This document shows positions 1 to 60,575 of a stretch of DNA of 64,000 bases, one piece after another. The stretch is from Stegostoma tigrinum (taxonomy: Eukaryota): NCBI RefSeq assembly GCF_030684315.1, contig NC_081387.1:11820867-11884866 (forward strand), written 5' to 3'. Position numbers and translations under genes: made by a program. The notes beneath the pieces were generated by a model, which was given only the letters and a program-made list of their open reading frames with translations, did not search any database and was not told the DNA's origin. Numbering within the stretch: position 1 is the first letter of the stretch; every line of letters starts with the position of its first letter.

Positions 1-3000
1 TATCACAGTCACTGCCTCACTATCCCTCTATCACATTCAATGCCTCACTGTTCCCCATCACAGTCACTGCCTCACTATCCCCCCATCACTGCCACTGCCT
101 CACTGTCCCCTACATCTGTCACTGCCTCAATACCCCACTATCACTTTTGCTGGCTCACTGTCCCCCTATCGCCATCACTACCTCACTGTCCCCATATTAC
201 TGTCACTGCCTCACTGCCCCCCTACCACTGTCACTGCCTCACTGTCCCCCTACCACTGTCACTGCCTCACTATCCCCTATCACAGTCACTGCCTCACTAT
301 CCCTCTATCACATTCAATGCCTCACTGTTCCCCATCACAGTCACTGCCTCACTATCCCCCATCACTGTCACTGCCTCACTGTCCCTCTATCACATTCAAT
401 GCCTCACTGTTCCCCATCACAGTCACTGCCTCACTATCCCTCTATCACATTCAATGCCTCACTGTTCCCCATCACAGTCACTGCCTCACTATCCCCCCAT
501 CACTGTCACTGCCTCACTGTCCCCCTGTCACTGTCACTGCCTCATTATCCCCCTATCACTGTGACAGCCTCATTATGCCCCTTTCACTGTAACTGCCTCA
601 TTATCCCCCTATCACTGTCACTGCCTCACTATCCCCCCATCACTGTCACTGCCTCACTGTCCCCCTACCACTGTCACTGCCTCACTATCCCCCTGTCACT
701 GTCACTGCCTCATTATCCCCCTATCAATGTGACAGCCTCATTATGCCCCTTTCACTGTAACTGCCTCACTGTCCCCCTACCACTGTCACTGCCTCACTAT
801 CTCCCCCCCGCTAATGGTGGGGCACGTTGGCTCAGTGATTTGCACTGCAGCCTCACAGCACCAGGGACCCGGGCTCAATTCCACCCTCGGGCGACTCTCA
901 GTGCGGAGTTTGCACATTCTCCCCGTGTCTGCGTGGACTTCCTTCGGGTGCTCCGGTTTCCTCCCACAGTCCAAAGATGTGCAGGCCAGGGTGGATTGGC
1001 CATGCTAAATTGCCCATAGTGTCCAGGGGCGTGTATGGGTATTAGGGGGAAGGACGTGGGTGGGATGCTGCAATGGGCAGTGTGCTCTTGTTGGGCCAAA
1101 GGGCCTGTTTCCACACTGTAGGGAAACTCATCTAATCACTGTCAATGTCCCCTGATCACTGTCACTGCCTCACTTTCCACCTATCACACGCAGTGCCTCA
1201 ATGTACCCCTATTAGAGTCACTGCCTCACTGCCTCACTATTACTGTCATTGCCTCACAGCCTCACTATCCCCCTATCACTGTGACAGCCTCATTATCCCC
1301 CTATCACTGTAACTGCCTCACTATCCCCCTGTCACTGTCACTGCCTCATTATCCCCCTATCACTGTGACAGCCTCATTATGCCCCTTTCACTGTAACTGC
1401 CTCACTGTCCCCCTATCACTGTCACTGCATCACTATCCCACCAATCACTATAACTGCCTCACATTCTCCCTATTACTGTCATGGCCTCGCTATCCCCCTA
1501 TACTGTGAATGCCTCACTGTCACTCTATCACTGTCACTGCCTCACAGTCTCCCTATCACTGTCACTGCCTCACTATCCCCTATCACTGTCAATGCCTCAC
1601 TGTCCCCCATCTCTATCACTGCCTCACTGTCCCCCTATCACTGTCACTGCCTCACAATCCCTCTATCACTGTCACTGCCTCACAGTCTCCCTATCACTGT
1701 CACTGCCTCACAATCCCTCTATCACTGTCACTGCCTCACTGTCCCCCCATCTCTATCACTGCCTCACTGTCCCCCTATCACTGTCACTGCCTCACAATCC
1801 CTCTATCACTGTCACTGCCTCACTGTCCCCCTATCACTGTCACTGCCTCACTGTCCCCCATAACAGTCATTGCATCACTGTCCCCCATCACTGTAACTGC
1901 CTCACTGTCCCCCATCACTGTCACCGCCTCACTGTTCCCCTATCACTGTCACCGCCTCACTGTTCCCCTATCACTGTCACCGCCTCACTGTTCCCCTATC
2001 ACTGTCACCGCCTCACTGTTCCCCTATCACTGTCACTGCCTCACTGTTCCCCTATTACTGTCACCGCCTCACTGTCCACCTCTCACAGTCACTTCTTCAC
2101 TATCCCACTAACACTGTCACTGCCTCAATCTCCGCCTATTACAATCAACGCCTGGCACTCCCCCTATCACACTCACTGCCTCCCTGTACCCCTATCACTG
2201 TCACTGCTTCACTATCCCCCTATCACTGTCACTGCCTCACTACCTCACTATCACTATCACTGCCTCACTATCCCCCTATCACTGTCACTGCCTCACTACC
2301 TCACTATCACTATCACTGCCTCACTATCCCCCTATCACTGTCACTGCCTCACTACCTCACTATCACTATCACTGCCTCACTATCCCCCTATCACTGTCAC
2401 TGCCTCACTACCTCACTATCACTATCACTGCCTCACTATCCCCCTATCACTGTCACTGCCTCACTACCTCACTATCACTATCACTGCCTCACTATCCCCC
2501 AATCACTGTCACTGCCTTACTACCTCACTATCACTGTCACTGCTTCACTGCCTCACTGTCCCGCTATTACTGTCACTGCCTCACTGTCCACCTATCACAG
2601 TCACCGCCTCACTATCCCCCTATCACAGTCACCGCCTCACTATCCACCTACCACTGACGCTGCCTCACTATCCCACTTACCAGTGCCACTGCCTCACTAT
2701 CCCCCTATCACTTTCACTGCCTCTCTATTTCACTGTCACTGCCTCTCTATCTCACTGTCACTGTCACTGTTTCACTGTCCCTTTACCACTGTCACTGCCT
2801 CACTTTCCCCTCACACTTTCACTATCTCACCATCCCCCTTTCACTGTCACTGCCTAACTGCCCCCCTATCACTGTCACTGCGTCACTGTACCCCTAACAC
2901 TGTCAATGCCTCACTATCCCCCTAACACTGTCAGTGCCTCACTGTCCCCACTATCACTGTCACTGCCTCACATTCTCCCCTCGCTGTCACGGCCTCATTA

Positions 3001-3640
3001 TACCCCTATCACTGTCACTGCCTGACTGCCCCACTGTCACTGTCAATGCCTCACTATCCCCCATCACTATTACTGCCTCACAGTCCCTCATAACAGTCAC
3101 TGGCTCACTGTATTCCTATCACGGTCACTGCCTCATCATCTCCCTAACATAGTCACTGCCTCACTATCTCCCTAACACTGTCACTGCCTCAGTCTCCCCT
3201 ATCACTGTCACTGCCTCACTATCCCCCCATCACTGTAACTGCCTCACTGTCCCCCTATCACTGTCACTGCCTCACTATCCCCCTATCACTGTCACTGCCT
3301 CACTGTCCCCCTATCACTGTCACTGCCTCACTATACTCCCTCACTGTCACTGCCTCACAGCCCCACTGTCACTGTCAATGCCTCACTATCCTCCCTATCA
3401 CTGTCACTGCCTCACTGCCCACCTATCTCTGTCACTGACTCTCTACCAGCCCTATCACTGTCACTGCGTCAGTGTCCCCCTCTCACTGTCACTGCCTCAC
3501 TGTCCCCCTATTACTGTCACTGCCTCACTGTCCCCCTATTACTGTTACTGCCTCACTATCCCCCTATCACTGTCACTGTCTCACTATCCCCCTATCACTG
3601 TCACTGTCTCACTATCCTGCCCTCACTGTCACTGTTTCAC
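1..3640. repeat. Degenerate tandem satellite (~26-28 bp unit such as TCACTGTCACTGCCTCACTATCCCCCTA, built from TCACTG/TCACTGCC submotifs)
   Basis: Continuous recurrence of tcactgtcactgcctcact(a/g)tcccc; explains the low-complexity H/C/P/S/L/T ORFs in three frames; interrupted by a SINE at ~815-1125. Confidence 0.95.
815..1125 (+). mobile_element. HE1-like tRNA-derived shark SINE inserted in the satellite
   Basis: tRNA-like head (ggcacgttggctcagtg...gcactgcagcctcacagcaccagggacccgggctcaatt), core gagtttgcacattctccccgtgtctgcgtgg...cccacagtccaaagatgtgcagg, tail gggcctgtttccacactgtaggga; several other copies in the window. Confidence 0.85.
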
Positions 3641-4439
3641 CATCCCACTCTCGCCGGCCCACCCTTGACCTGACACCCTCACTCTCTCCCACAATCAATC
3701 TGCCACCACTGCAGGCTTCAAAACATACATGTTCAGCTCCCACCATCTGGCTCCCAGTCATGACCCAGCTCCTCCCTGATTCCTGGGTCAGTAGTGAAAA
3801 GTGATGGGGGGTTGGAATTTCAACAGAGCTACAGTGAAGAGGTGGGGAACAAAAAGGAAGGGCAAATGAAGGAGAAGGAGAACTGGCATGCAGAGTGGCA
3901 TTCTGATTGTAGCAAATTACTATGCTGCCATCTTGGTATATTCTAGAATCATTTTCACTGGTGTTAACTGGGGTCTCAGAGTCCATCAACATTATACTTG
4001 TAATTAACACTTTGTAAGGATCTTTGTACTGCAAAAGTGAGCGTCCCATGAACATGTCACATTTAGGGCATTCTCATTTCAAAGGGGTGTTACGTTTGGC
4101 CAAAGTAATAATCACATGCGGACATGTCTGGGAGAAATATGCAGAAAGTCAGCATCACAGTGAAGCAGACTGAGGAAAACAGAACTGTGTGAGAATAGTA
4201 TCAGCAATAGCAGATAAAAGGAAATGACAAGGACCACCTTTCTGCATGCCTGAGGCAAAAAATGACTACATAGGTTGTGGTTAGTGACAGTGTTCCCTCT
4301 GAACTGCAGTCGCTTTGAGATTCCCTCTGAGGGAGGAGTGAACAAAAATCAAAAGTGTGACAGGAAGGAGCAGATAATATGAACAGAACAGTGCAATAGA
4401 AATGAGAACCAGAATGAGTAATAAACATAAACTATCAAA

Positions 4440-11538: not shown

Positions 11539-11581
11539 ATGAACCCAAGCCCGATCCTCTGGATATTGGCTGTCTTCTTGG
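11539..11581 (+). CDS. NCR3: Gene 1 (NKp30/NCR3-like) leader exon: MNPSPILWILAVFL(G)
   Basis: Acceptor cccatcacag| at 11534/11535, ATG at 11539, hydrophobic signal peptide, phase-1 donor G|GTGAGT; in frame with the V exons. Confidence 0.85.
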
Positions 11582-13793
11582 GTGAGTATCATTCCATTAT
11601 TTATAAACTTTACGCATTGGTGTTGGAGATTTTGCAGATAAAGGCAAATAGTACATGGTGCAAACGACAAGCAAATTAGACTGAGTTTAAAGACACAGCT
11701 GAACAGAATCACTTATGCTGTAATCTAACACAACTTCACAATGACCTAGCTCGACTCATCAACCGTTGCTAAATTTTCAAACGCTTTGCCAAACATTTAT
11801 AAATTATGCAGCACGGAAACAGATGTTTTAGTCTAGCTTGTCCACATGGACCAGGCATCCCAGTCTGACCTACTCCCATTTGCCAGCATTTGGCCCATAT
11901 CTTTCACCCCCACATGCCTTTTAAATGTTGTAATTGTACCCACCTCCAATCCTTCCTCTGGCAGCTTATTCCATACACGCACTACCTTCTGCAAGAAAGA
12001 AGTTACCTCATAACTCCTTTTTAAATCTTTCCCCTCTCATCTTAAAACAATGCCATCTAGTTTTGGAATTCCCCACTCGAGGAAAACAGAAGTTTCCACT
12101 TGTAAAATACTTGCAAAGACCAAAACCATTCCCTCCAGTTCCCCACAACTAATTCTATCTGTATCCATAGCAAGTCTCTTGAGGATGAAGCAGACCATGA
12201 CAGAATATATGACATTGAGTTAAACTTCTTCATTGAGATTCATGTCTTCAGATCATTTACCACGCATTTCCAACTTCATGAAACTGCCTGATTCCACCAA
12301 ATCTCAATTCATCTGATGCTGGAACCATCAGAGATGTTTTTGTTACCTCTATACTTGACTGTACTATAAGCACATCCCACACAGCGCCCACTATAAACCT
12401 GATTTTATCTGAACCTCTGATTGCCCTGCCATAACTCTCACAGTGTGCTCCCTCACAGCCCTGCTGGCAGAGTGTACGGTAATGTAATGTCACTGCTCTA
12501 CACTAATACTGTATAACACATGTACAAGTCCTACCAAGCAAGTGGTGGAATTAAGATTCATCACTGTGGAGACCTGGAGTACATGTCTAGTCTCAATGCT
12601 CGTACTGTAACAATTATTATTGATGGTTCATTCATGTCCTTTATGGAAGGAAATCTGCAATCTTTACCTGGTCTGGGCTGCATGACCCATAACAATTGAC
12701 TCTTAAATAGACTACCAAACCATACAGCTCAATGGCAGTTACGCATGGGCGACCAATACTGATCTTACTAGTGATACTCACATCCCCTGTAAAGTGCACA
12801 GTTCAGAAACAGAGAATTTGACTGAACCACCATTATTTCACTCCTTTCAAACTGGCCTTCTTATCACTTATCATGTTCCCAAATCCTATCATTGCAGAGT
12901 CAAGTGCTTTGCTGTATTTACAATACTGGCCTCTCATAGTTTTCTCACTCATAGGGTCGCAGAGTGATCATAGAGTCATCCTTCCTTTCTCTGTCCTTCC
13001 TCATACTTCTTGACACCTCACCACCTTAGGCCTTTTGCCGACAGTAGGGAATTTCAAGAGTAGGGAGCATATGAGGGGAGAGAGATTTGAAATGAACGTG
13101 AGGGGTAACTTTGTCAGAGAGTGGTTTGTGTGTGGAATGAACTTGTAGGGGAAGTTGGGGTTGTGGCTACAGTTACAACATTGAAAAGGCATGTAGATAA
13201 TTACATGTATAAGAAATGTTTGAAAGGATATGGGCCAAGCACAGGCAGGTGGGACTAGTTTAGTTTGGAGTAATGGACTGGTTGGACCAAATGGTCTGTA
13301 TCTGTGCAGTAGAAGTCTATGACTCAGTAATATCAAAATAACACATTAGGTCTCCTTGAAATAAGTGATCTCTGTGACAGATCACCACTGCAGCTCTTTT
13401 GAATAACATGTCACATCTACGGCGCTTTCATTATCCTGCTTGTTGGAAACCAAGTGGAAGGATTTGCTGTTTTTGTTGATCTGCCCATAGAATGATGCAG
13501 CACTGTGAAGCCCATTCTGCCCATCGTGCCAGTGCAAGGTTTCTAAAAAAAACGCTTTTGAACTTAGAACGTAATCGTTTCCCAATGAAGGGTGCAGTCA
13601 GCTTCCTTGTTCAGGCTGTATTGGAATCTGCTCTCAAAGCACTTTCACGCAGAGGTCAGCATCTCACTGAGTGTTAAAACGGTTTTCTAAACATTGCTGC
13701 ACATTCCCTCCACTGAGCTGGTAATTTGTTTATTCATTTTAACGTTGACTCTCAAAGTTAACTTCCCATCGCTTCCTCCCCTCTAAGTTTCAG

Positions 13794-14126
13794 GAATCGG
13801 TGCCAAGAAGTTCCAAGTTGTTCAGAAACTTCCAAGGATTCTGGCAGATGAGGGTCAATCCGTCCTCATCCCATGCGAGTGGACAGGCAATGTCTCCCTG
13901 ACAATAGGCTCTTTTAAATGGTTGAAGGATGGTGCGGAAGTTTCCAATCAGACAGCGAAGTACACAGGGCGAGTGCACAGACCCCAACAGGATTTCATCC
14001 ACAGCCGCAATGCTTCCCTCTTGCTGAAGGGGCTGAAAGTTACTGATTCTGGGATGTACAGATGCAGCGTGAAATTCATGCAGCTGGGTGAGGAATATGG
14101 GAATGGAACACAGCTCACAGTCAGAG
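13794..14126 (+). CDS. NCR3: Gene 1 IgV exon copy 1 (NKp30-like, germline-joined VJ-type domain)
   Basis: tttcag| ... AGAG|GTAAGC; 333 nt, phase 1-1, open: GIGAKKFQVVQKLPRILADEGQSVLIPCEWTGNVSLTIGSFKWLKDGAEVSNQTAKYTGRVHRPQQDFIHSRNASLLLKGLKVTDSGMYRCSVKFMQLGEEYGNGTQLTVR. Canonical C..W..DSGxYxC plus GxGTxLxV; motifs parallel human NKp30 as recalled (IGSVTWFRD, EVRNGTPEFRGR, LGVGTGNGTRLVV). Orthology not tested. Confidence 0.9.
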
Positions 14127-16572
14127 GTAAGCGATTCACTTGTCTGCATATAGCCATGTGTGACAGCAGGAATCAGCTCCACAGCACAACTGGGTAACTT
14201 TTCCCAGGTCCTTCCACTGATGGGGTTCTATTCAGTTCGAGCACTCTCCCAGTAACACAATCATAGAAAAGTACAATCTTGCACAGCTAAGAGGTGCCTT
14301 TGGTTTGTTTGTTTGGACCGAGTCAAACTCCAGTGATGGTTTTCAACATGTACAGAACCAGACATCTTTAGTGACTTTTTACGTACATTTTCAATGAATA
14401 AAGTGTATTTTTAAAGTTTGAAATATTTATAAAGTCAATAATGTGTAAACTCTTCATGGAAAGTTGCTACTATCGTGCCTTCAGTATTAAATTCTGTGTG
14501 GAGTTTGCATATTTTCCCCGTGTCTGCGTGGGTTTCCTCCCACAGCCCAAAGATGTGCAGGTTAGGATGGAAATTATGCAGCACGGAAGCCGACCTTTCA
14601 GTCTCACATGTCCACATGGACCAGACATCCCAGTCTGACCTACTCCCATTTGCCAGAATTTGGCCCATATCTTTCACCCCCAAATGCCTTTTAAATGTTG
14701 TAATTGTACCCACCTCCACTCCTTCCTCTGGCAGCTTATTCCATACACGCACTAACTTCTGCGGGAAAGAAGTTACCTCATAACTCCTTTTTAAATCTTT
14801 CCCCTCTCATCTTAAAACAATACCATCTAGTTTTGGAATCCCTCACTCTAGGAAAACAGAAATTTCCTCTTGTAAAATACTTGTGAAGACCAAAACCATT
14901 CCCTCCAGTTCCCCACAACTAACTCTATCTGTCTCCATGGCAGGTGTCTTGAGGATAAAGCAGAGCACAAAATCTTGGTGAATATGTGGCTTCGAGTTGA
15001 ACTTCTTCATGGAGATTCATGTCTTCGTATCATTTACCACTCATTTCCATCTTCAGGAAACTGCCTGATTCCACCAAATCTCAATTCATCTGATGCTGGA
15101 ACCATCAGAGATGTTTTTGTTACCTCTACACTTGACTGTACTATAAGCACTTCCCACACAGCACCCGCTATAAACCTGATTTTATCTGAACCTCTGATTG
15201 CCCTGCCATAACTCTCACAGTGTGCTCCCCCACAGCCCTGCTGGCAGAGTGTACGGTAATGTAATGTCACTGCTCTACACTAATACTGTATAACACAAGT
15301 ACAAGTCCTACCAAGCAAGTGGTGGAATTAAGATTCATCACTGTGGAGACCTGGAGTACATGTCTAGTCTCAATGATCGTACTGTAACAATTATTATTGA
15401 TGGTTCATTCATGTCCTTTATGGAAGGAAATCTGCAATCTTTACCTGGTCTGGGCTGCATGACCCATAACAATTGACTCTTAAATAGACTACCAAACCAT
15501 ACAGCTCAATGGCAGTTACGCATGGGTGACCAATACTGATCTTACTAGTGATACTCACATCCCCTGTAAAGTGCACAGTTCAGAAACAGAGAATTTGACT
15601 GAACCACCATTATTTCACTCCTTTCAAACTGGCCTTCTTATCACTTATCATGTTCCCAAATCCTATCATTGCAGAGTCAAGTGCTTTGCTGTATTTACAA
15701 TACTGGCCTCTCATAGTTTTCTCACTCGTAGGGTCGCAGAGTGATCATAGAGTCATCCTTCCTTTCTCTGTCCTTCCTCATACTTCTTGACACCTCACCT
15801 CCTTAGGTCTTTTGCCGACAGTAGGGAATTTCAAGAGTAGGGAGCATATGAGGGGAGAGAGATTTGAAATGAACGTGAGGGGTAACTTTGTCAGAGAGTG
15901 ATTTGTGTGTGGGATGAACTTGCAGTGGAAGTGGTGGATGTGGCTACAGTTATAACATTGAAAAGGCATTTAGATAATTACATGTATAATAAATGTTTGG
16001 AAAGATATGGGCCAAGCACAGGCAGGTGGGATTAGTTTAGTTTGGAATAATGGGCTGGTTGGACCAAATGGTCTGTTTCTGTGCTGTAGAAGTCTATGAC
16101 TCAGTAATATCAAAATAACATATTGGGTCTCCTTGAAATAGGTGATCTCTGTGACAGATCACCACTGCAGCTCTTTTGAATAACATGTCACATCTACGGC
16201 GCTTTCATTATCCTGCTTGTTGGAAACCAAGTGGAAGGATTTGCTGTTTTTGTTGATCTGCCCATAGAATGATGCAGCACTGTGAAGCCCATTCTGCCCA
16301 TCGTGCCAGTGCAAGGTTACTAAAAAAAACGCTTTTGAACTTAGACCGTAATCGTTTCCCAATGAAGGGTGCAGTCAGCTTCCTTGTTCAGGCTGTATTG
16401 GAATCTTCTCCCAAAGCACTTTCACGCAGAGGACAGCATCTCACTGAGTGATAAAACGGTTTTCTAAACATTGCTGCATATTCCCTCCACTGAGCTGGTA
16501 ATTTGTTTATTCATTTTAACGTTGCATCTCAAAGTTCCAACTTCCAATCGCTTCCTCGCCTCTAAGTTTCAG

Positions 16573-16905
16573 GAATCGGTGCCAAGAAGTTCCAAGTTGT
16601 TCAGAAACTTCCAAGGATTCTGGCAGATGAGGGTCAATCCGTCCTCATCCCATGCGAGTGGACAGGCAATGTCTCCCTGACAATAGGCTCTTTTAAATGG
16701 TTGATGGATGGTGCGGAAGTTTCCAATCAGACAGCGAAGTACACAGGGCGAGTGCACAGACCCCAACAGGATTTCATCCACAGCCGCAATGCTTCCCTCT
16801 TGCTGAAGGAGCTGAAAGTTACTGATTCTGGGATGTACAGATGCAGCATGAAATTCATGCAGCTGGGTGAGGAATATGGGAATGGAACACAGCTCACAGT
16901 CAGAG
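16573..16905 (+). CDS. NCR3: Gene 1 IgV exon copy 2
   Basis: Same splice sites, 333 nt, open; differs from copy 1 at WL(K>M)DG, LK(G>E)LK and CS(V>M)K. Confidence 0.88.
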
Positions 16906-19350
16906 GTAAGCGATTCACTTGTCTGCAAATAGCCATGTGTGACAGCAGGAATCAGCTCCACAGCACAACTGGGTAACTTTTCCCAGGTCCTTCCACCGAT
17001 GGGGTTCTATTCAGTTCGAGCACTCTCCCAGTAACACAATCATAGAAAAGTACAATCTTGCACAGCTAAGAGGTGCCTTTGGTTTGTTTGTTTGGACCGA
17101 GTCTAACCCCAGTGATGGTTTTCAACATGTACAGAACCAGACATCTTTAGTGACTTTTTACGTACATTTTCAATGAATAAAGTGTATTTTTAAAGTTTGA
17201 AATATTTATAAAGTCAATAATGTGTAAACTCTTCATGGAAAGTTGCTACTATCGTGCCTTCAGTATTAAATTCTGTGTGGAGTTTGCATATTTTCCCCGT
17301 GTCTGCGTGGGTTTCCTCCCGCAGCCCAAAGATGTGCAGGTTAGGATGGAAATTATGCAGCACGGAAGCCGACCTTTCAGTCTCACATGTTCACATGGAC
17401 CAGACATCCCAGTCTGACCTACGCCCATTTGCCAGCATTTGGCCCATATCTTTCACCCCCACATGCCTTTTAAATGTTGTAATTGTACCCACCTCCACTC
17501 CTTCCTCTGGCAGCTTCTTCCATACACGCACTACCTTCTGCAAGGAAGAAGTTACCTCAAAACCCCTTTTAAAATCTTTCCCCTCTCATCTTAAAACAAT
17601 ACCATCTAGTTTTGGAATCCCCCACTCTAGGAAAACAGAAATTTCCTCTTGTAAAATACTTGTGAAGACCAAAACCATTCCTTCCAGTTCCCCACAACTA
17701 ACTCTGTCTGTCTCCATGGCAGGTGTCTTGAGGATAAAGCAGAGCACAAAATCTTGGTGAATATGTGGCTTCGAGTTGAACTTCTTCATAGAGATTCATG
17801 TCTTTGTATCATTTACCACTCACTTCCATCTTCAGGAAACTGCCTGATTCCACCAAATCTCAATTAATCTGATGCTGGAACCATCAGAGATGTTTTTGTT
17901 ACATCTATACTTGACTGTACTATAAGCACTTCCCACACAGCACCCGCTATAAACCTGATTTTATCTGAACCTCTGATTGCCCTGCCATAACTCTCACAGT
18001 GTGCTCCCCCACAGCCCTGCTGGCAGAGTGTACGGTAATGTAATGTCACTGCTCTACACTAATACTGTATAACACAAGTACAAGTCCTACCAAGCAAGTG
18101 GTGGAATTAAGATTCATCACTGTGGAGACCTGGAGTACATGGCTAGTCTCAATGCTCGTACTGTAACAATTATTATTGATGGTTCATTCATGTCCTTTAT
18201 GGAAGGAAATCTGCAATCTTTACCTGGTCTGGGCTGCATGACCCATAACAATTGACTCTTAAATAGACTACCAAACCATACAGCTCAATGGCAGTTACGC
18301 ATGGGCGACCAATACTGATCTTACTAGTGATACTCACATCCCCTGTAAAGTGCACAGTTCAGAAACAGAGAATTTGACTGAACCACCATTATTTCACTCC
18401 TTTCAAACTGGCCTTCTTATCACTTATCATGTTCCCAAATCCTATCATTGCAGAGTCAAGTGCTTTGCTGTATTTACAATACTGGCCTCTCATAGCTTTC
18501 TCACTCGTAGGGTCGCAGAGTGATCATAGAGTCATCCTTCCTTTCTCTGTCCTTCCTCATACTTCTTGACACCTCACCTCCTTAGGTCTTTTGCCGACAG
18601 TAGGGAATTTCAAGAGTAGGGAGCATATGAGGGGAGAGAGATTTGAAATGAACGTGAGGGGTAACTTTGTCAGAGAGTGGTTTGTGTGTGGAATGAACTT
18701 GTAGTGGAAGTGGTGGATGTGGCTACAGTTATAATATTGAAAAGACATTTAGATAATTACATGTATAATAAATGTTTGGAAAGATATGGGCCAAGTGCAG
18801 GCAGGTGGGACTAGTTTAGTTTGGAATAATGGACCGGTTGGACCAAATGGTCGGTTTCTGTGCTGTAGAAGTCTATGACTTAGTAATATCAAAATAACAT
18901 ATTGGGTCTCCTTGAAATAGGTGATCTCTGTGACAGATCACCACTGCAGCTCTTTTGAATAACATGTCACATCTACAGCGCTTTCATTATCCTGCTTGTT
19001 GGAAACCAAGTGGAAGGATTTGCTGTTTTTGTTGATCTGCCCATAGAATGATGCAGCACTGTGAAGCCCATTCTGCCCATCGTGCCAGTGCAAGGTTTTT
19101 AAAAAAACGCTTTTGAACTTAGAACGTAATCGTTTCCCAATGAAGGGTGCAGTCAGCTTCCTTGTTCAGGCTGTATTGGAATCTTCTCCCAAAGCACTTT
19201 CACGCAGATGACAGCATCTCACTGAGTGATAAAACGGTTTTCTAAACATTGCTGCATATTCCCTCCACTGAGCTGGTAATTTGTTTATTCATTTTAACGT
19301 TGACTCTCAAAGTTCCAACTTCCAATCGCTCCCTCCCCTCTAAGTTTCAG

Positions 19351-19683
19351 GAATCGGTGCCAAGAAGTTCCAAGTTTTTCAGAAACTTCCAAGGATTCTG
19401 GCAGATGAGGGTCAATCCGTCCTCATCCCATGCGAGTGGACAGGCAATGTCTCCCTGACAATAGGCTCTTTTAAATGGTTGAAGGATGGTGCGGAAGTTT
19501 CCAATCAGACAGCGAAGTACACAGGGCGAGTGCACAGACCCCAACAGGATTTCATCCACAGCCGCAATGCTTCCCTCTTGCTGAAGGAGCTGAAGGTTAC
19601 TGATTCTGGGATGTACAGATGCAGCGTGAAATTCATGCAGCTGGGTGAGGAATATGGGAATGGAACACAGCTCACGGTCAGAG
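19351..19683 (+). CDS. NCR3: Gene 1 IgV exon copy 3
   Basis: Same splice sites, 333 nt, open; differs from copy 1 at QV(V>F)Q, LK(G>E)LK and two synonymous sites. Confidence 0.9.
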
Positions 19684-20054
19684 GTAAGCGATTCACTTGT
19701 CTGCAAATAGCCATGTGTGACAGCAGGAATCAGCTCCACAGCACAACTGGGTAACTTTTCCCAAGTCCTTCCACTGACGGGGTTCTATTCAGTTCGAGCA
19801 CTCTCCCAGTAACACAATCATAGAAAAGTACAATCTTGCACAGCTAAGAGGTGCCTTTGGTTTGTTTGTTTGGACCAAGTCAAACTCCAGTGATGGTTTT
19901 CTTCATGTACAGAACCAGACATCTTTAGTGACTTTTTCTGTACATTTTCAATGAATAAAGTGTATTTTTAAAGTTTGAAATATTTATAAAGTCAATAACG
20001 TGTAAACTATTCATGGAAATTGCTACTATTGTGCCTTCAGTATTAAATTCTGTG

Positions 20055-20272
20055 TGCAGTTTGCACATTCTCCCCGTGTCTGCATGGGTTTCCTCCCACA
20101 GCCCAAAGATGTGTAGGCTAGGGTGTATTGGCCATGCTCAGTCGCCCTGTCGTGTTCAGGAATGTGCAGGTTAATTTGGTTAGCCATGAGAACTTCAGAG
20201 TCACAGGGACGGGTCTGGGTGGGATGCCCTTCCGATGGGCTGAATGGCCTGCTTCCACACTGTCGGGATTCC
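20055..20272 (+). mobile_element. HE1-like SINE (5'-truncated); continues past the point where the copies in units 1 and 2 are cut
   Basis: gtttgcacattctccccgtgtctgc...cccacagcccaaagatgtgtaggctagggtgtattggccatgct...ggcctgcttccacactgtcgggatt. Confidence 0.8.
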
Positions 20273-21673: not shown

Positions 21674-21787
21674 TGAAACCAAAAAGTAGCACTACGCTAT
21701 GGTTATTCCTGTTGATTGGTGGCTTGATAGAACTAGCTCTCCTGTTAATTGCTGTGTTCTACTATGTGAAGTTACACAGAGCAAAAG
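21674..21787 (+). CDS. NCR3: Gene 1 stalk + transmembrane exon: (V)KPKSSTT-LWLFLLIGGLIELALLLIAVFYYV-KLHRAK
   Basis: Acceptor ttttgtgtcttag|, donor AAG|GTAAGG, 114 nt, phase 1-1; 24-residue hydrophobic helix followed by basic stop-transfer residues; Glu codon at 21730-21732. Confidence 0.85.
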
Positions 21788-25510: not shown

Positions 25511-25529
25511 GTGCTCAACCGGCTCAAAG
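25511..25529 (+). CDS. Gene 1 cytoplasmic mini-exon: (G)AQPAQ
   Basis: Strong acceptor tttgttttag|, donor AAG|GTGAGG; phase 1 to phase 2, matching the TM exon. Confidence 0.65.
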
Positions 25530-25899: not shown

Positions 25900-25937
25900 A
25901 CAAGTCCAAGTTGTTTCAGAGATATTCTGCGTAGATG
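25900..25937 (+). CDS. Gene 1 cytoplasmic mini-exon (QVQVVSEIFCVD or TSPSCFRDILRR depending on the upstream exon)
   Basis: Acceptor ttttcattgttttgcag|, donor ATG|GTACGT; two open frames. Confidence 0.55.
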
Positions 25938-29432: not shown

Positions 29433-29473
29433 ATATTCTAACTTTACCTGTCATGGATGAAGTGCAGAATCTG
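29433..29473 (+). CDS. Gene 1 cytoplasmic mini-exon: xILTLPVMDEVQNL
   Basis: Acceptor ttttgtcttttag|, donor CTG|GTAAGT; phase 1 to phase 0. Confidence 0.7.
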
Positions 29474-31655: not shown

Positions 31656-31697
31656 GATCAAGACGAGAGTGAACTGGAATCTGACACACTGTGCATG
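31656..31697 (+). CDS. Gene 1 cytoplasmic mini-exon: DQDESELESDTLCM
   Basis: tttatcttataacag| ... ATG|GTATGG; 42 nt, phase 0-0. Confidence 0.65.
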
Positions 31698-31784
31698 GTA
31701 TGGAAGTATTCCACTTTGTTCAATTATGTTACCCTTCATTGAAAGCAGAGTAATCATTAACAGAGTTTAATTTGTGTTCCAAAG

Positions 31785-31828
31785 GTTGAAAACAATGAAG
31801 ACACATCGATTTACACACCTATGGAAAG
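31785..31828 (+). CDS. Gene 1 cytoplasmic mini-exon with YxxM: VENNEDTSIYTPME
   Basis: tttgtgttccaaag| ... AAG|GTGAAT; phase 0 to phase 2; acidic residues before YTPM (31812-31823). Confidence 0.65.
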
Positions 31829-33745: not shown

Positions 33746-33783
33746 TGTAAAGACCTTCAGCAACTCAACAGCGACTGAGATGG
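33746..33783 (+). CDS. Gene 1 cytoplasmic mini-exon: (S)VKTFSNSTATEM, GC donor
   Basis: ttggtttctgacag| ... ATGG|GCAAGT; phase 2 to phase 1, bridging the neighbouring exons. Confidence 0.5.
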
Positions 33784-33903
33784 GCAAGTACCTCAATTCA
33801 TTTAAATGTTTAAAAGAGCTGGTGAGAAATTAGAAGTACATCTTTTGTGGACTAACATAACCCACTTAAACCTTGCTTTTAATTTCTTACCATCTATCGG
33901 GAG

Positions 33904-38107: not shown

Positions 38108-39157
38108 CAGATAATGGGAACTGGAGATGCTGGAGAATCCAAGATAATAAAATGTGAGGCTGGATGAACACAGCAGGCCCAGCAGCATCTCAGGAGCACC
38201 AGAGCTGACGTTTGGGGCCTAGACCCTTCATCAGAGAGGGGGATGGGGTGAGGGTTCTGGAATAAATAGGGAGAGAGGGGGAGGCGGACCGAAGATGGAG
38301 AGAAAAGAAGATAGGTGGAGAGGTGAGTATAGGTGGGGAGGTAGGGAGGGGATAGGTCAGTCCAGGGAAGACGGACAGGTCAAGGAGGTGGGATGAGGTT
38401 AGTGGGTAGGAAATGGAGGTGCGGCTTGGGGTGGGAGGAAGGGATGGGTGAGAGGAAGAACAGGTTAGGGAGGCAGAGACAGGTTGGACTGGTTTTGGGA
38501 TGCAGTGGGTGGAGGGGAAGAGCTGGGCTGGTTGTGCGGTGCAGTGGGGGGAGGGGATGAACTGGGCTGGTTTTGGGATGCGGTGGGGGAAGGGGAGATT
38601 TCCACAATGATGCCACCCGAAGGTTGCAGGAACAGCAACTCATATTCCGCTTGGGAACCCAGCAGCCCAATGGTATCAATGGGGACTTCACCAGCTTCAA
38701 AATCTCTCCTTCCCCCACCGCATCCCAAAGCCAGCCCAGTTCGTCCCCTCCCCCCACTGCACCACACAACCAGCCCAGCTCTTCCCCTCCACCCACTGCA
38801 TCCCAAAACCAGTCCAACCTGTCTCTGCCTCCCTAACCTGTTCTTCCTCTCACCCATGCCTTCCTCCCACCCCAAGCCGCACCTCCATCTCCTACCTACT
38901 AACCTCATCCCACCTCCTTGACCTGTCCGTCTTCCCTGAACTGACCTATCCCCTCCCTAACTCCCCATCTATACTCTCCTCTCCACCTATCTTCTTTTCT
39001 CTCCATCTTCGGTCCGCCTCCCCCTCTCTCCCTATTTATTCCAGAACCCTCACCCCATCCCCCTCTCTGATGAAGGATCTAGGCCCGAAACGTCAGCTTT
39101 TGTGCTCCTGAGATGCTGCTGGGCCTGCTGTGTTCATCCAGCCTCACATTTTATTAC
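38108..39157. mobile_element. Palindromic Penelope-like insertion: two ~460-bp inverted arms around a GIY-YIG C-terminal remnant, 10-bp TSD
   Basis: Arms ~38144-38600 and ~38700-39156 are near-perfect reverse complements; spacer encodes HNDATRRLQEQQLIFRLGTQQPNGINGDFTSF; CAATCAACCA at 38098-38107 and 39158-39167. Confidence 0.9.
39067..39094 (+). ncRNA. Minimal type-I hammerhead ribozyme-like core (Penelope-associated)
   Basis: CTGATGA-aGGATCTAGGCCC-GAAA-CG-TC: CUGAUGA and GAAA boxes, short stem II with one mismatch, palindromic ACGT helix III, GUC cleavage triplet. Confidence 0.6.
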
Positions 39158-39236: not shown

Positions 39237-39265
39237 ATTGCCAAATTCCTCCGCCCAAACTATGG
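39237..39265 (+). CDS. Gene 1 cytoplasmic mini-exon: IAKFLRPNY(G)
   Basis: ttttgttcttgcag| ... TGG|GTAAGC; phase 0 to phase 2, fitting both neighbours. Confidence 0.65.
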
Positions 39266-39920: not shown

Positions 39921-41284
39921 CAATCCTTAACTGGGCACTTTTTCCTCTTCTTTATTCATTCACAGGATGAGGGAATCACTGGCTAAGCCAACATTTATTG
40001 CCCATCCCTAATTGCCCAGAGGGCAGTGAAGAGTCAACCACATTGCTGTGGGTCTGGAGTCACACGTAGGCCAGGATGGCACTTTCTTTCCTAAAGAACA
40101 TTAGTGAACCAGATGGGTTTTTAACAACAATTGACAATGGATTCATGGTCATCCTTAGATTCTTAATTCTAGATATTTTATTGGATTCAATTTCCAGCAT
40201 CTGCCGTAGCAGGATTTGAACCAGAGCCCCCAGAACATTTCCTGGGTCTCTGGATGAACAGTCCAGTGATAATACCACTAGGCCATTGCCTCTCCTTCTA
40301 ATCTTAGTTGCATTTATGGCCATTACTCTCTCAAAATTGCTTACATTTGGCAACATTCCTTGCTTAACCTCAATTGAAAAGGCTGGTAACTTGTGCAAAT
40401 GTTATATAACCGAAGCATGCAGAGTATGTTCAATTTAGGCTAACTGAACATTTTGTTTAATTAGAGAGCTTCATCATTTGGTGTACAATACGCAACATTA
40501 GTGTTAGACAAGACATGCGGATCATCTTCTCTGAACATGATTGCAGAAGGCGATGATTTAGAGTGAGTCAAAAATTTCTCTCATTGAAACGACTCATATG
40601 TCATATTTGCCTTATTCACTTGAAACTGTAATGACTGGAGGGCTGCTTAAAAAAAAACTTTTATTCAGCACATCTACAGTGCTCCAACAATCACAGTTGG
40701 GGAGTTAACATTGTCACTCAATACATCATTGAAAAAACATTGTTCTAGATGCACACTTCCTTTCCAAAACCACTCTTGATGTAACTAGCCTCAGCCCATT
40801 AGTCAATATGATATACTGGAATCAGTTTATTTCTTGTTGACTACTGTCAATGAGTTCAATTCTTCCCAAATTCTGGCACACACATCAATTAGCCCACTGC
40901 TGAGCAATGCCTGGAAGGTGCTGGATGGATCTCTTGGATCCTGCCTCAGATCTGGTGATTTGACGAGTCGAGTTACATCTGGACTGCAACACCTTACATT
41001 CACCTTTAAATTAAGGCAAAGTTAGACTACCTTCTTAATATATTTTGAGGGGGTTTGGTCTCATCCATAACCAGAAGTAAAAATGAAGCTCTATTGAAAT
41101 AAAATGGGGCACAGTGGGTGGTTGGGGAGGCTGAAGATATTTGTTTTAGAACATATGCCTTGAGTTTCTGAGGCATTTTTGTTTAATTATGACTTTTTTG
41201 ATATTGACTATCTTCTCAGTGCTTTTTAATTCCTTGATGTGTATTTTATTCTCATGTTTGCAATCTCTTCCTCTCCTTTTGCAG

Positions 41285-41319
41285 GCATGATTATGGATAT
41301 GACGAGCTTAATGTAACAG
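41285..41319 (+). CDS. Gene 1 cytoplasmic mini-exon with GYxxL: HDYGYDELNVT
   Basis: Long pyrimidine tract ctcttcctctccttttgcag|, donor CAG|GTGACT; phase 2 to phase 1; YDEL at 41298-41309. Confidence 0.7.
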
Positions 41320-42926
41320 GTGACTAACAAGAAAGTATATATTTTGGGGAAGCTGGATGGTATACTATATCTTGCAACCTTTGTCTTGTGAATTTGAGGC
41401 AAGTAGTGATTAATCCAATAAGGCTTTGCTCCCACTGTTGCCCATTAAGTACCCCTTGGTTATTGGTGCAGGATATTGTTGTGAGTGAAGCAGACAGTTT
41501 CCTAGAACCAGTGGAGTGAAATGCTGACTGATTCGGTATTTCTGATAACTTCCCACAAAACGAGTTTCGATCCCATCTTCCCAGATCAGAAAATGACCTC
41601 TTAGTTGTTACAATTTGACCTTCCTTCCCTGTAGTACTCAGAGGGACATAAAGCAACAGGAGATTGAAGTGAAAGTGATGATTATGGAGAGACTTGTCTA
41701 AAGGCCCCTTTGCATCAACTAAAGCTGGTTACTGTTAGCATATAAATCAATACAGCCTATTTAGCTCCCTTTGAAATAGCTGCCCAGATGTAATGGTTTC
41801 TGTGGTACACATTGCATATTTTCCTGTTTACACTGAATATGGCGCTAAATGGAAGTGATCTATAACCTTGCAGCAGTGCTGATGTAGTTAAGCAACTTAA
41901 TCGACTATTCCATTTGAAGAATGCTCACAGTGAGCAACTTTGGAATTTAAATTGAGAATGTCTTCATCATTGATTTTAAAATTTGATGAAATAAGGATAC
42001 AGTTCTAAAAGATCATTTGAAAATACATGTTTCTTTTCTCACTGTGGAGAAATTTGAGATTCCCCATCAAAAGAATCCTTACAGTGCCATTTCCAAGTGA
42101 ACACTAATACGGGTCTCTTCAAATAAGGTGTATTTTAGGCATTTGTTTTACTCTGACTGATAGTGTAGGACTGAGAAGCTCAGTAATATTCCATTGTCTG
42201 GGGTATTTCAGAAGCACATTCTCTGGAGCAAGGCAGAATCACTAGAGCAGCAGCTCTGGGGTCCTCCACATTATTCCATACATGTACGGTCTCCAAAAGA
42301 TAATGCCAGTTTCAGTGAAATTATGACGATGGTAGTGAAGGCTAGCTGTGCCGATGTCACTTTCACTTCAAAACTTACAGAATTTACGTAATATCTCTTT
42401 GCGGAATTAAATTTGTTTTATAATGTGTTCAAGGTGAACAGGACCACTTTTTCATTAGCCATCGCTAGTAGTTCTGTAAAGCTAACTGTGGTATCAGTTC
42501 TGGTGGCGGAAGTACTTCCATCATTTTGCACAGTTAGTAATGTCAGGATTTTGATACAGTGCCCATAAAAACTCGGATATGTGCCGACAAAGGTAATCAG
42601 TCGCTTGGCATTTATGCCTTGAGGATCTTGCAGTTGCCACAGAGTGAAACAGCACAGAAGGAGGCTATTCAGGACACTGCACCTGTGTTAACACTGTCAA
42701 ACAGCGACCCAATTAATCCCATTTACCCGCAACTCGGCAGGAAAAGCTTTGATCAATTTAACTGCAAATGTTTAGAATAAAATTCCTGCCATGATCTTTA
42801 AAATTGGGTATGATATCAATGCAAGTTTTAGGGACTAAGGGTTGACACAGTTGTTCTGAGACTGTTTCCTTGCGGGAATGAGACATAAAACTATTTACTT
42901 GTACTTCTCTCTCATTTAATTCTCAG

Positions 42927-42967
42927 CAAAACGGTATCCTAAACCTGAAGGCATACCAAAGGACGAG
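42927..42967 (+). CDS. Gene 1 cytoplasmic mini-exon: (A)KRYPKPEGIPKDE
   Basis: ctctctcatttaattctcag| ... GAG|GTAAGA; phase 1 to phase 0. Confidence 0.7.
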
Positions 42968-43560: not shown

Positions 43561-43608
43561 GAAAATGGAGAAAATCCTCAGGAGTGCACTGAAGTAGTGA
43601 ATAAATAG
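43561..43608 (+). CDS. Gene 1 probable terminal coding exon: ENGENPQECTEVVNK*
   Basis: cccctttataatttgtgcag|GAA, phase 0, TAG at 43606-43608; AATAAA at 43600-43605, another near 44583. Confidence 0.6.
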   Translation, partial: ENGENPQECTEVVNK

Positions 43609-46081: not shown

Positions 46082-46811
46082 TTTTTTTATTTGAAATAAT
46101 ATACTTTATTCATAGAATGTACAAAAAATAAAACATATTTATACACCTACCCAGTCATGCAAGCCGCTCCGGGTTACCCAGGGGGTACGTACACCAACTA
46201 AAAGTTTAAAAAAACAAAACAAAGAAAAAGCCTCAGCAGTTGTCTCCCCGCACAGTCCCTGTTGGCCCCCTGACCAGTTGGGAAGGCGCCAGCTGGGCCC
46301 AGTTACCAGATGGGGCCCTTTTTTCTATTCTGGACGAGGGGGTTCATACGGTGGTCTTTCCCCACCGCGCCTTGGAGGCGGCTGCCCCAAGCTTTAGCGC
46401 GTCCCTCAGCACGTAGTCCTGGACCTTGGAGTGTGCCAGTCTGCAACACTCGGTTGGGGTCAATTCTTTCAGCTGGCAGACCAGCAAGTTGCGGACAGAC
46501 CAAACAGCGTCTTTCACCGCATTGATGGTCCTCCAGGCGCAGTTGATGTTGGCCTCGGTGTGCGTCCTGGGCAACAGCCCGTAGAGCACAGAGTCCCGTG
46601 TCACGGAGCTGCTCGGGACGAACCTCGACAAATACCACTGCATCCCCCTCCAGACCTCCTGCGCATAGGCACACTCCAGAAGGAGGTAATCGACAGTCTC
46701 ATCCCCCCCGCAGCCACCTCGAGGGCAGCGTGCGGTGGCACAGAGATTCCGGGCCTGCATAGAGGATCTCACTGGCAGAGCACCTCTCACCACCAGCCAA
46801 GCAATGTGGGA
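46082..46811 (-). mobile_element. 5'-truncated L1/Tx1-clade LINE, apparently young, with 12-bp TSD
   Basis: Open ORF2 C-terminus with zf-RVT-like AWLVVRGALPVRS..CPRGGCGGDETVDYLLLECAYAQEVW; AATAAA and A-tail on the minus strand; TTGTAAACTGCA at 46070-46081 and 46812-46823; GC-rich against AT-rich flanks. Confidence 0.9.
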
Positions 46812-48974
46812 TTGTAAACTGCAGTTGCAAGTCATAAGGACTGTTGTTTGAAATGAGAGAAAGCTGGTTCTCAATTTCTCAGCTGTGTCGTAGAATTGCT
46901 GTCACTTTATATTCAAGTTGATTTTAAAGACTTTATAACAATTAGTAGAAATCAATATCCTTCCTCATCAGTCATATTAAAGTTGTCACAGAATTTGGAA
47001 GAGTTCATCTTGATAAGTGTCCAGTTTATTGACAATTAATGTGATGCAGCTGGTAAATATCTGGGAAACGGCGTAACAGTCAGAAGTATTGTAATATTCT
47101 AAAGACAGATGATGGGGGTATCTGGGAGACATCATGAGATTATGGGAGGACCTAGGTCTGCCCATAGAGTTGTCCATCATTGATCGTGTGTTTTCAGGAT
47201 TGGACGTATAAATTGCGGAGATGTGGCTAACAATGACATCAATATTGCATGTAATTATTATAACAGAGAAGGTGGTGCTCAGCTGGGGAACTCAGAGTGT
47301 CATTGAATTCTCTTCAGGTCTGAGCTGTGTGGGCAACTGGGCCCCACATGAAAGCCATATATAGAGTAGTCTCTGCAATCTCCTTCATGTGGAAGAAGCA
47401 TTCTGAATAAAGACTACTTGTGCAGCTGAACACTGACATCAGGACTCCTTTTGACATTTCTCCCTAAATCCATAACAATCACCCTGTAATTAATATGAAT
47501 ATGAAGATCCAGGTTGGAGATCATGTGAATTTATCCTGCAGCAGCATCTTGAAGTTGTAGGGTATTAAGCACATTCTCCAGCTCTTAGCCTGAACAGTGA
47601 ATCCAGGAAGTGAGTCAAATAATTTGTCCTGTTGAGTGATTTCAAAGCTCTGACTGTCTCTGGAATGTTAGCCAACAGCTGGGAAAAACAAGAAAATCTG
47701 AAGGGAATACCAAACCCATGAGTTTTATATGTATTTCCATGTAGGACCTTTGGAATTAATTTAGTACGAATAAACAGAGGTCAAATTAATAGTTAATAAA
47801 ATACTAAATGGTGAAATTCTGGTGGAAACGAACAAGAAGTAAAAGTATTTGTCCTGGAAAAGCTGGTTTAAGCTGGTTCCTCAGCAATGTCATTCCATTT
47901 CCAGTACTCCGCTATTGTCCCTGATGCTGCCGAGCTAAAGCAGGCCGCGTTACACCAGAGATCATCCACCATCTCTGACCAGGATTCATTGAGTGCCACT
48001 TTATGTGGTGAATCTTCAGCTACCCATCTCAACCACACTTCCAACCACATCTAACAGATATCACTGAGTAGTGAATAGTTACAACGACTGTAGTTGCTTC
48101 TGCCTGCATTATACAAAGAAGCTGTGGGGTTCACGAGTAAGGCACATTCGTGTAGTATCCATGGCGTCATTGTGTGAGTCATTTTTGACTTTGTAACCTG
48201 TGATAAAGCTTTGGCTGTCGTTCAATGCTAAGGGAGACCAAAGAAGGCCAATGTGAATGTTACCAGCAAGTTGAACATGCTTCCGATCATGCTAAAGTCA
48301 GGGTGGAAATCAGGAATAGGAAGCACTTGAAGGACATTATACACATCACTCCCTGTCATGCCATCTCCTCAAAACATGACGCAAATTACATAGAAACTAA
48401 CAACAAATCCTTTTAAAACTTGAACAGGGCAGAATTTAGAAATTTAAGGATAAAGGATGGTCTACATGGCAAAATCTAACTAAAGACCCAAAATGAATTC
48501 TTCTCCGAACAAACAAATCAGGAGCAGATGAGGACCTTTTAGTGCATTAAAACTACTCCACCATTCAATAAAATCATAACTGTTTCGCTTGTGGCCTCAG
48601 CTCAGCGATCCTCTCGACAATCTTTAACTTCCTTGTTAGCTAAGAACTATTCAACGCTGCCTTGAATGTGTTTAATTAGCCCCACCTTTAACTACCTTTG
48701 GGAGAAGACAGTTTCACAGTGCCATGACCCAGTCTGGGAAAAGTTCCAGCTCACTACATCTTCAATGGGAGACTCCTTACTTTTAAACTGTGCCCTCTAG
48801 TTCCAAGGAAAATGTAAACAAAGAACTCCAGATCCTGGAAACTTGAAACAAGATCAGAAATTGTGGGCAAAACTCAGCAGATCTGTCGAGACAAAACAGA
48901 TTTAATGTTTCAAGTCCATTATCGAGTCCCTGCGTTAACTTTGTATTTCTATCTCCATTCCGCACTGAATAAGT

Positions 48975-55807: not shown

Positions 55808-55850
55808 ATGGGTTCCGGCGCTGCGTTCTGTATTCTTAGCCTTGGCTTTG
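55808..55850 (+). CDS. NCR3: Gene 2 (NKp30/NCR3-like) leader exon: MGSGAAFCILSLGF
   Basis: Acceptor ccattcgcacag| at 55799/55800, ATG at 55808, 14 codons + G as in gene 1, donor TTG|GTAAGG; candidate UTR exon at 55598-55675. Confidence 0.8.
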
Positions 55851-57116
55851 GTAAGGAGTCTAATTAATGCACTTACTGGAATTAAATGGGACGCCAGGCA
55901 AACGTTGAAATGTATGAGACTTGTATTTGTCGTGGCATGGAACATGTCATATTAGCAATTTATCACTAGGTATGCTTTTACTTAGTTAGTTATGCTATTT
56001 TATTAAAGGTGGCTGGTGAATGACTGACCAAGCGTTCATTAATTTTAATGCATGGGTTCACAGATCAACTCCATTCGCCTTCACTAAATCTCTACTCTAA
56101 AGCATATACGAGCTGGGAATCATGGGAAGTAAAAAAAATTATTTCGCTACTTTATTTCAGTTTCTTAACCAACAGTTCCCCACTGGTGATAGCATCCATA
56201 TAAGAAAAAGTACCTCAGCAATGTTGTTAATGTCTGGATCTATGGCACAGCTTGAGACTTCACGTCAAGCCAAGTGTGTTTCTGCTTTAAATATTGAACT
56301 AAACAGCATGCCATGAAATATGTCAAAAAAGAAACAGAGCAACGTTTATCACAGCTTTTTCAAAATGTGGTAAAATGCTTGCCAGATCATTGGGATGTGG
56401 AGGTAGGGAGAGCCAAAATCTCTTGATACATTTGGAAGCAAAACGAATTACAAGGATATTAAAACAGGTGAGATATAGTCTTAGTAGTTTAAAATCAGTT
56501 CTTTACAGTCGTGATTTAGCACTAAATCTTATCTTGAAAGTTGACATTTGGCTTAATTTCTGTCAATTGCGTGCAGTTAACTCTGGGATCACGGGAAGTA
56601 AAGAACAGTGATTAATGTTTTACTATCTTTGTAATTGGTGCGCTTTCAAAAATATATGACTGTAACATCAGCGATATCATCACGCAGTTTGATATTGTCA
56701 CCTAGCGAAAATGTGCTGTTGCTCTGGTTTTGCAATGGAAGGATTGCACAGAATACCGTATACATTTAAAATTCATGATCCAATGTTCGATAAAACTGGA
56801 CGACCTCAAAGATTAATATCTCCGAAAATGAATTAGCTCAATGCCGCGACTATCCTCCATCATCTTCATCAAAGTAATTACATCTTATTTCTAAACCGAT
56901 CACAAAACGGTAAAGTCGTTGAATTAAATTTCCCATAGTGGGAGAGCTAATCACTTCATTTTGGTGTGTGAATGTCTGCACAAACTTTAGACAAATGCAC
57001 GTGACCGTTCCGTCGTTTGAATTCCAATAATTGATTTTAGCGAGAATATTTCATGCAGACCCCACAACGTCGCACGTGTCTTACTTCAGAGTGAAACGTT
57101 GCTTGTTCTTTTACAG

Positions 57117-57455
57117 CAGTGACTGCTGAGAACATCAAAGTTCTTCAAAGCCCGGCATTTGTTAATGTAACCGAGGGGGCGACGGCCGTTATGCACTGTG
57201 CTTACGAAGGATCTAGTGGGCCGAGTGCATTCAGGTGGTTCAGGGACTATGCAAATGGAGCCGAACTTGGTAACAGCACAGCACAGTACAGAGGCCGGGT
57301 CATTGGGCCAATCAGGGAAAAAATCGACGGAAGGACGGGCTCCTGGATTCAACTAACAAAGGTGACATTGAGCGATGAGGCGACCTATTATTGCAAGGTG
57401 GAGTTTGTCTTAAGCGGTGAACATTATGGCCCAGGAACAACGCTTAGTGTGACAG
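57117..57455 (+). CDS. NCR3: Gene 2 IgV exon (NKp30-like, germline-joined VJ-type)
   Basis: ttcttttacag|CAG (NAGNAG) ... CAG|GTGAGC; 339 nt, phase 1-1: AVTAENIKVLQSPAFVNVTEGATAVMHCAYEGSSGPSAFRWFRDYANGAELGNSTAQYRGRVIGPIREKIDGRTGSWIQLTKVTLSDEATYYCKVEFVLSGEHYGPGTTLSVT. Orthology not tested. Confidence 0.9.
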
Positions 57456-57779
57456 GTGAGCCTGCAATACGCTGCTAACTTGAACAATGAAGGAGCAAAA
57501 CTACAGAATTGAGGAATCTTTTAGTTCACATCTCCTGTCAGTTGTCAATCTTATAATAGTAAAGGTCCTACAGACACAACTTCGCAAGTTAAGGCATTAG
57601 AAAACCGGATATTACAAACGCTGAGATATACTCCGCTTACTTATCCCACTATATTTCTTGAATGATGTTCAATAACCCAATAGCTAGAATAATTATTTTG
57701 ATTATAACTTCGATTTAGAGGATGCAAGGAACATTGCACCAACAGCTGTAGATTAGGAAGTAGAAAAGGGGGAGAAGCT

Positions 57780-60338: not shown

Positions 60339-60575
60339 GTGCGCATCGCTTCATTACATAATCTCAATCCTTCAACACTGCTCGTCATGTCGCTTACATT
60401 TCCATGCATCAGTGCTAGGATGTTACGTTATGTGTTTGGAATGCCCAGCTCTCCGACGTTGGAAATTCCACAATTACAGATTGGGAACGTAAAGAGGGTT
60501 TCCTGGGGTGGGTTTTATTTTAGTTCTGATTATAGATGGCAACGTTTAAAACCTGTAATGCCCTCAGTGTTTCAG

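Follow-up and report, generated by a model that had tools for sequence, protein, structure and literature searches.

We identified, in a 64,000-nucleotide stretch of Stegostoma tigrinum DNA (the window), a gene that is best read from its sequence as a self-signalling, multi-V receptor of the NCR3 (NKp30) family, which would form a third class beside the Arg-TM activating paralogues and the neutral-TM ITIM paralogues. Its transmembrane (TM) helix carries a glutamate at mid-membrane. We tentatively propose, with a chance that we put somewhat short of even, that this residue pairs helices by hydrogen bonding, another copy of the receptor being the likeliest partner, and does not act as an adaptor charge of the CD3/DAP12 type. 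We are far more confident that the receptor would signal for itself, and is no classical adaptor, than we are of which partner it has in the membrane.

Sixteen exons (a leader, three V exons, one TM exon and 11 cytoplasmic exons) chain in phase into an open frame of 548 amino acids, and the part of this chain from the third V exon to the stop is identical to residues 25-332 of the NCBI protein model P0001 (XP_059495503.1, Stegostoma tigrinum), which includes the TM exon. The features of the window are as follows:

11539..11581, + strand: signal-peptide exon, from the ATG to a phase-1 GT donor, matching residues 1-14 of NCBI model P0010
13788..14126, + strand: V(J)-type Ig exon 1, NKp30-like by domain and PDB searches
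16567..16905, + strand: V(J)-type Ig exon 2, 3 nt different from exon V1
19345..19683, + strand: V(J)-type Ig exon 3, 4-5 nt different from V1 and V2
21674..21787, + strand: exon for a short stalk and the TM helix, with no Lys or Arg in the core and no Cys
21730..21732, + strand: GAA codon of the mid-membrane Glu, residue 373 of the 548-residue exon chain
25511..25529, + strand: cytoplasmic exon c1
25900..25937, + strand: cytoplasmic exon c2
29433..29473, + strand: cytoplasmic exon c3
31656..31697, + strand: cytoplasmic exon c4
31785..31828, + strand: cytoplasmic exon c5, with YxxM (SIYTPM, 31806-31823), a predicted PI3K site
33746..33783, + strand: cytoplasmic exon c6, with a GC donor
39237..39265, + strand: cytoplasmic exon c7, proline-rich
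40465..40562, + strand: cytoplasmic exon c8, with a canonical ITIM (VQYATL, 40483-40500)
41285..41319, + strand: cytoplasmic exon c9, with a lone YxxL (DYGYDEL, 41289-41309)
42927..42967, + strand: cytoplasmic exon c10, with a Tyr six residues past the YxxL but as YxxP, hence no ITAM
43561..43608, + strand: last coding exon c11, with the stop
55808-61430, + strand: gene 2, also NCR3-like, with its leader near 55808, its V exon at 57119-57455 and a TM exon for a neutral helix at about 60209-60335

The V domain is a Pfam V-set domain encoded by single exons of 339 nt with GxGTxLxV, that is, the non-rearranging, single-exon VJ-type domain by which the NCR3/NKp30 family is recognized. Its four best PDB matches were all human NKp30 (E value 3-4 × 10−12, the best 3 × 10−12; next match 3 × 10−7), bearing out the NKp30-like identity given in the earlier note, and several homologues carry an NCR3 label from their sources. 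The V exon lies in a 2.78-kb unit that is triplicated across positions 11801-20125 at 95-97% identity, and the three exons are intact, differing by 3-5 nt. They are divided between two NCBI models (P0010 and P0001); we infer that all three are joined in one mRNA. When the third V exon was taken to sequencing runs, 24 runs were listed, none of them an RNA run, a result that speaks neither for nor against expression. Orthologue models hold one to three V domains. The V tree puts the window's three copies together, and likewise those of the lamniforms, so that V-exon duplication is recurrent; a similar lineage-specific multiplication of V domains was seen in rays, in Heterodontus and in lamniform sharks. 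For each V exon there are two in-frame acceptors, spaced by 6 nt (13788-13794), and NCBI models of different species differ in which of them they use; the GC donor of exon c6 lies at 33783-33785.

The TM helix is encoded by a single 114-nt exon (21674-21787), preceded by AG and followed by GT, running from phase 1 to phase 1; its product comprises a short stalk, the helix and a basic stop-transfer stretch. The exon sequence confirmed what the earlier note had read, namely a Glu codon (GAA, 21730-21732) at residue 12 of a 24-residue helix with no Lys or Arg in its core. An acidic residue at mid-membrane is rare: Asp or Glu occurred within the central 11 residues in 0 of 79 background type-I TM helices drawn from other homologue matches, a set whose filter prefers hydrophobic windows, yet through which the Glu helices also pass. 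Any of D, E, N, Q or H was found in the core of only 11 of these 79 helices.

We compared the Glu column across 12 distinct orthologous TM helices from nine species (10 shark and 2 ray), leaving out isoforms with the same TM helix and the models P0010, P0011 and P0017, which have no TM exon. The ten shark helices align gap-free; those of the rays Hemitrygon and Mobula align only with a 2-residue offset, which counts against the helix-pairing reading. The column held E in five helices (Stegostoma, Carcharodon, Cetorhinus and two Heterodontus genes), Q in three (Hemitrygon, Mobula and Rhincodon, the whale shark, which is the closest relative), T in two (models from Heterodontus), H in one (Chiloscyllium punctatum) and N in one (C. 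plagiosum). It was thus polar in 12/12 helices and hydrophobic or basic in 0/12, with no L, V, I, A or G, and its mean hydropathy was −3.0, compared with +1.4 to +4.4 in most adjacent core columns. One turn above the polar site, a small residue (G or S) was present in all ten shark helices. The earlier note had looked to the conservation of Glu across chondrichthyans: the residue is indeed not private to Stegostoma, being found in four other shark genes, but some orthologues have neutral polar residues in its place. At the C-terminal end of the helix, positions 21763-21765 encode Tyr, where eight of the other nine shark orthologue helices have a juxtamembrane Cys, likely a palmitoylation site.

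A tree of the TM and tail (12 rows, omitting Hemitrygon for its short tail and including Scyliorhinus) agreed with species relationships, which places E at the base of the sampled galeomorph sharks; parsimony would then imply that E is ancestral there, with three or more independent shifts to an uncharged polar residue. That the column is always polar is in part expected because of codon structure and shared ancestry, with four to five of the seven single-base neighbours of the Glu and Gln codons being polar, and we regard the pattern as suggestive of a constraint to polar residues. The same comparison indicates that the charge of Glu is dispensable at this site. A homologue search with the white-shark TM and tail as query (924 candidates) returned three proteins, all already known, with no chimaera, squalomorph, skate or nurse-shark orthologue among them.

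The cytoplasmic tail of 163 residues carries the tyrosine motifs that had been ascribed to the gene: YxxM, a canonical ITIM and YxxL. VQYATL fits the ITIM consensus I/V/L/SxYxxL/V(I) as given in PMC12447643, and YxxM is described as a PI3K site in PMC11599192. Of 13 gene tails, nine had the YxxM and nine the ITIM, the remaining models being truncated or divergent, and Y[DE]EL was present in 8/8 rows checked. All three motifs are conserved between sharks and Mobula; in one Heterodontus gene, Asp replaces the Tyr of YxxM. An ITAM (YxxL/I-x6-8-YxxL/I) is absent from the P0001 tail, the Pfam ITAM model gave no match in the five proteins scanned, and the pattern occurred in only 2 of 15 tail rows (C. 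punctatum and Scyliorhinus), at differing places. We also considered a hemITAM reading of the lone YxxL, for which the rule given in PMC3576117 is that all three positions from −2 to −4 ahead of the YxxL are acidic; this reading was rejected, with one of three acidic here (H-D-Y-G-Y) and two of three in Mobula. As far as its sequence tells, the receptor brings its own signalling apparatus, including an inhibitory motif, which is not expected of an adaptor.

The C. punctatum models P0163 and P0003 read through the counterpart of the c4-c5 intron (31698-31784), which has two in-frame stops in the window, and so obtain an ITAM-like YxxL-x8-YxxL; this may be either real exonisation or an annotation artefact. 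In Scyliorhinus P0011, YxxL-x6-YxxL spans the counterparts of the exons at 41285-42967, of which the window keeps the second Tyr, with Pro at +3; the pair is possibly a degenerate ITAM or a convergent one. Other features of the window include a 1-kb self-inverted repeat of 91% identity (38145-39156) in the intron directly before exon c7, which looks like two opposed SINE-type copies; a degenerate tandem satellite at 1-3650 with a period of about 56 nt and strong strand skew; and a higher-GC fragment at 46116-46901 with a minus-strand frame. We take this frame to resemble ORF2 of a non-LTR retrotransposon, at its C-terminal zinc-finger end.

The earlier note had placed the acid on the adaptor side, such that the gene might encode an Ig-bearing signalling subunit paired with a basic-TM paralogue; in such a heteromeric receptor the Glu would be matched by charge with a TCR chain or with the Arg found in an NCR3 paralogue. 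Arg-TM paralogues do occur in the same shark clusters (Carcharodon P0008, Cetorhinus P0025 and Chiloscyllium P0012), the one from Cetorhinus (XP_078422539.1) being accession-adjacent to the Glu gene (XP_078422540.1), and the V domains of these Arg paralogues group near the Glu subfamily in the V tree. In white shark the Glu gene is XP_041068138 and the Arg paralogue XP_041068276. The distance to the basic boundary on the cytoplasmic side is 15 residues for the Arg of lamniforms and 13 for their Glu (values from Carcharodon, with a nearly identical helix in Cetorhinus), depths compatible with pairing, but other NCR3 Arg residues lie 19-22 residues from this boundary, two turns higher. Moreover, C. 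plagiosum has an Arg paralogue, yet Asn in the column, and the sole other plus-strand TM exon of the window, that of gene 2 (60233-60331), is neutral. TCR-CD3 needs both of its acids, and its assembly is impaired when D is changed to N or E to Q (PMC13107469 section 2.1.1); each acid, zeta excepted, normally lies within a DxxxT/S motif (section 2.1.2). Here the acid is swapped for Q, H, N or T in 7/12 helices, including that of the whale shark, and so it is not the irreplaceable acid of an adaptor; no S or T stands at i+3 or i+4 (D/ExxxT/S) in any of the 12 helices, and the Stegostoma tail has no ITAM. We give the charge-paired adaptor little credence, and hold it just as doubtful that sharks have a heteromeric NCR3 receptor in which the paralogue with the Glu and the tyrosine-motif tail does the signalling for an Arg-bearing neighbour of its cluster. 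To take an acidic TM residue as the mark of an adaptor was itself too strong a premise. CD300C, a ligand-binding IgV receptor, needs its TM Glu191 for FcR-gamma signalling (PMC12447643), and CD16A and CD64 bind gamma/zeta through FxxDT/FxxNT with no basic residue and with D or N tolerated (PMC13107469 section 2.2.2), a tolerance that resembles the exchange of E, Q and N in our column. Since NKp30 itself couples to zeta/gamma (PMC13107469), the shark protein could likewise be a ligand-binding receptor whose acidic or carboxamide residue hydrogen-bonds a dimer of FcR-gamma or CD3-zeta; besides its ITIM tail it would then have an activating arm, and be dual-function. This is conceivable though on balance unlikely: the FxxD/NT motif of coupling of the CD16A/CD64/Fc-epsilon-RI-alpha type was found in 0/12 helices, and the tail of CD300C is short and motif-free (PMC12447643), in contrast to the conserved motifs here.

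It is also possible, though rather improbable in our judgement, that the polar residue has no specific partner and is a tolerated relic, or that it lowers surface level via ER quality control, with the tail alone signalling. The presence of five different residues in the column, a codon neighbourhood that favours polar replacement and the ER retention caused by unpaired polar TM residues (PMC13107469 section 4.1) fit such a view, but a costly residue has then been kept in sharks and rays with 0/12 changes to L, V, I, A or G, when polar cores occur in only 11/79 background helices. A base-call error or an unused TM exon is scarcely credible. The V region is a recent triplication split in two by annotation, which lends this some footing, but the same Glu column recurs in three other shark genera, the presence of Glu in four other shark genes at the same gap-free position makes a base-call error very unlikely, and the exon has canonical splice sites and correct phases within the open 548-aa frame. 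An activating receptor of the NKp30 type, for which the rule is a TM Arg within the helix's upper half (PMC13107469), was rejected on the lack of K or R in the core of 12/12 helices and on a tail of 163 residues that is not short. A CD28-family reading, which calls for a lone V domain bearing a CDR3 proline motif and for a TM YxxxxT, was rejected as well: the sequence has neither PPP nor YxxxxT, and six orthologue identifiers gave 0 matches in nine supplementary files of PMC11599192.

A hydrogen-bonding helix-pairing site remains our preferred, if tentative, reading of the column. Model membrane helices are brought to oligomerise by Gln, Glu, Asp and Asn (PMC1190194), and the CD79A/B helices pack by a Gln-Glu dyad (PMC13107469 section 2.3.2). 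The earlier note had offered homo-oligomerisation through Glu as its second option; the E/Q/H/N/T column fits oligomerisation through this site, although Glu itself is kept in only 5/12 helices. The Thr of two Heterodontus models speaks against a helix-pairing site. Thr is a weak oligomerising residue. The sequence also has neither a stalk Cys nor a CD28-type YxxxxT that would favour a dimer. A two-copy structure prediction of the TM helix scored 0.03 against a mark of 0.32, a result that weighs on neither side. Binding of B7-H6 is a trait of the NCR3/NKp30 family; in the mechanism that we envisage, the V domains would bind a B7-family-like ligand, and the polar residue with the small residue one turn above it would form the helix interface. 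Clustering of the receptor could then allow Src kinases to phosphorylate the tail, which may recruit SHP-1/2 via the ITIM and PI3K via YxxM. The outcome would be a mainly inhibitory or dual modulating receptor for which an adaptor is not needed.

Gene 2 was considered as a basic-TM partner for the Glu gene and rejected, its helix being neutral. Its relatives in white shark (P0016) and horn shark (P0032) carry two ITIM-like motifs, and gene 2 is therefore probably inhibitory; its own tail extends past the part mapped. The nurse-shark NCR3 P0046 (QTT61898.1) likewise has a neutral helix and groups elsewhere in the tree. Kinlein et al. 2021 (MT914154-914161) reportedly described eight divergent nurse-shark NCR3 subtypes. 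PMC12227049 cites eight accessions, consistent with eight subtypes. Among titles and opening lines of abstracts on shark NCR3/NKp30, none described an acidic- or polar-TM NCR3; the main study of shark NCR3, Kinlein et al. 2021, or its supplements may already describe the present subtype. Linkage to the MHC class III region is a further trait of the NCR3/NKp30 family; the window itself holds just the second NCR3-like gene, but in bichir the NCR3-like model P0174 is merged with one that bears the label PRC2A, which hints that the family is linked to MHC class III in Polypterus.

NKp30 is regarded as activating only and as dependent on an adaptor. In sharks, a single V scaffold seems to serve three signalling classes within the cluster, namely an Arg-TM short-tailed class, a neutral-TM ITIM class and a polar-TM multi-V class with YxxM, ITIM and YxxL that has been retained by sharks and rays alike. 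This would make ancestral NCR3 a paired-receptor family. An acidic TM residue alone is no proof of adaptor identity, and the E/Q/H/N/T column offers a natural allelic series for studying how one membrane residue controls receptor assembly. Were the heteromer to prove true, it would be an extant intermediate, linking a germline VJ receptor to signalling subunits that bear Ig domains, CD79 and CD3 among them.

Compared with known systems, the shark gene shares with NKp30/NCR3 (human; multigene in sharks) the single-exon VJ-type V domain, and differs in having a mid-membrane Glu in place of the upper-half TM Arg, three V exons and a 163-aa tail with ITIM, YxxM and YxxL. CD300C and CD16A/CD64 are likewise ligand-binding Ig receptors that lack a basic TM residue and have an acidic or carboxamide one, but they are of an unrelated V subtype, the CD300C tail is short and motif-free, and the shark helices lack FxxD/NT. 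CD3 gamma/delta/epsilon, DAP12 and DAP10 also have an acid near mid-membrane and tyrosine motifs in the tail, YxxM being the motif used by DAP10; the shark gene departs from them in having no DxxxT/S or ITAM, an acid that is not conserved, an ITIM and a large, repeated, ligand-type ectodomain. CD79A and CD79B resemble it in their VJ-type Ig domain and in a TM Glu/Gln that acts as a polar helix-helix dyad. CD79 is a disulphide-linked heterodimer that signals by ITAM, whereas the shark gene has neither an ITAM nor a stalk Cys. Finally, CD300f, SIRP-alpha and PD-1 are Ig receptors with an ITIM tail of their own, as here, with CD300f combining ITIM and YxxM; receptors of this type have neutral TM helices, and their V domains differ from those of the shark gene.
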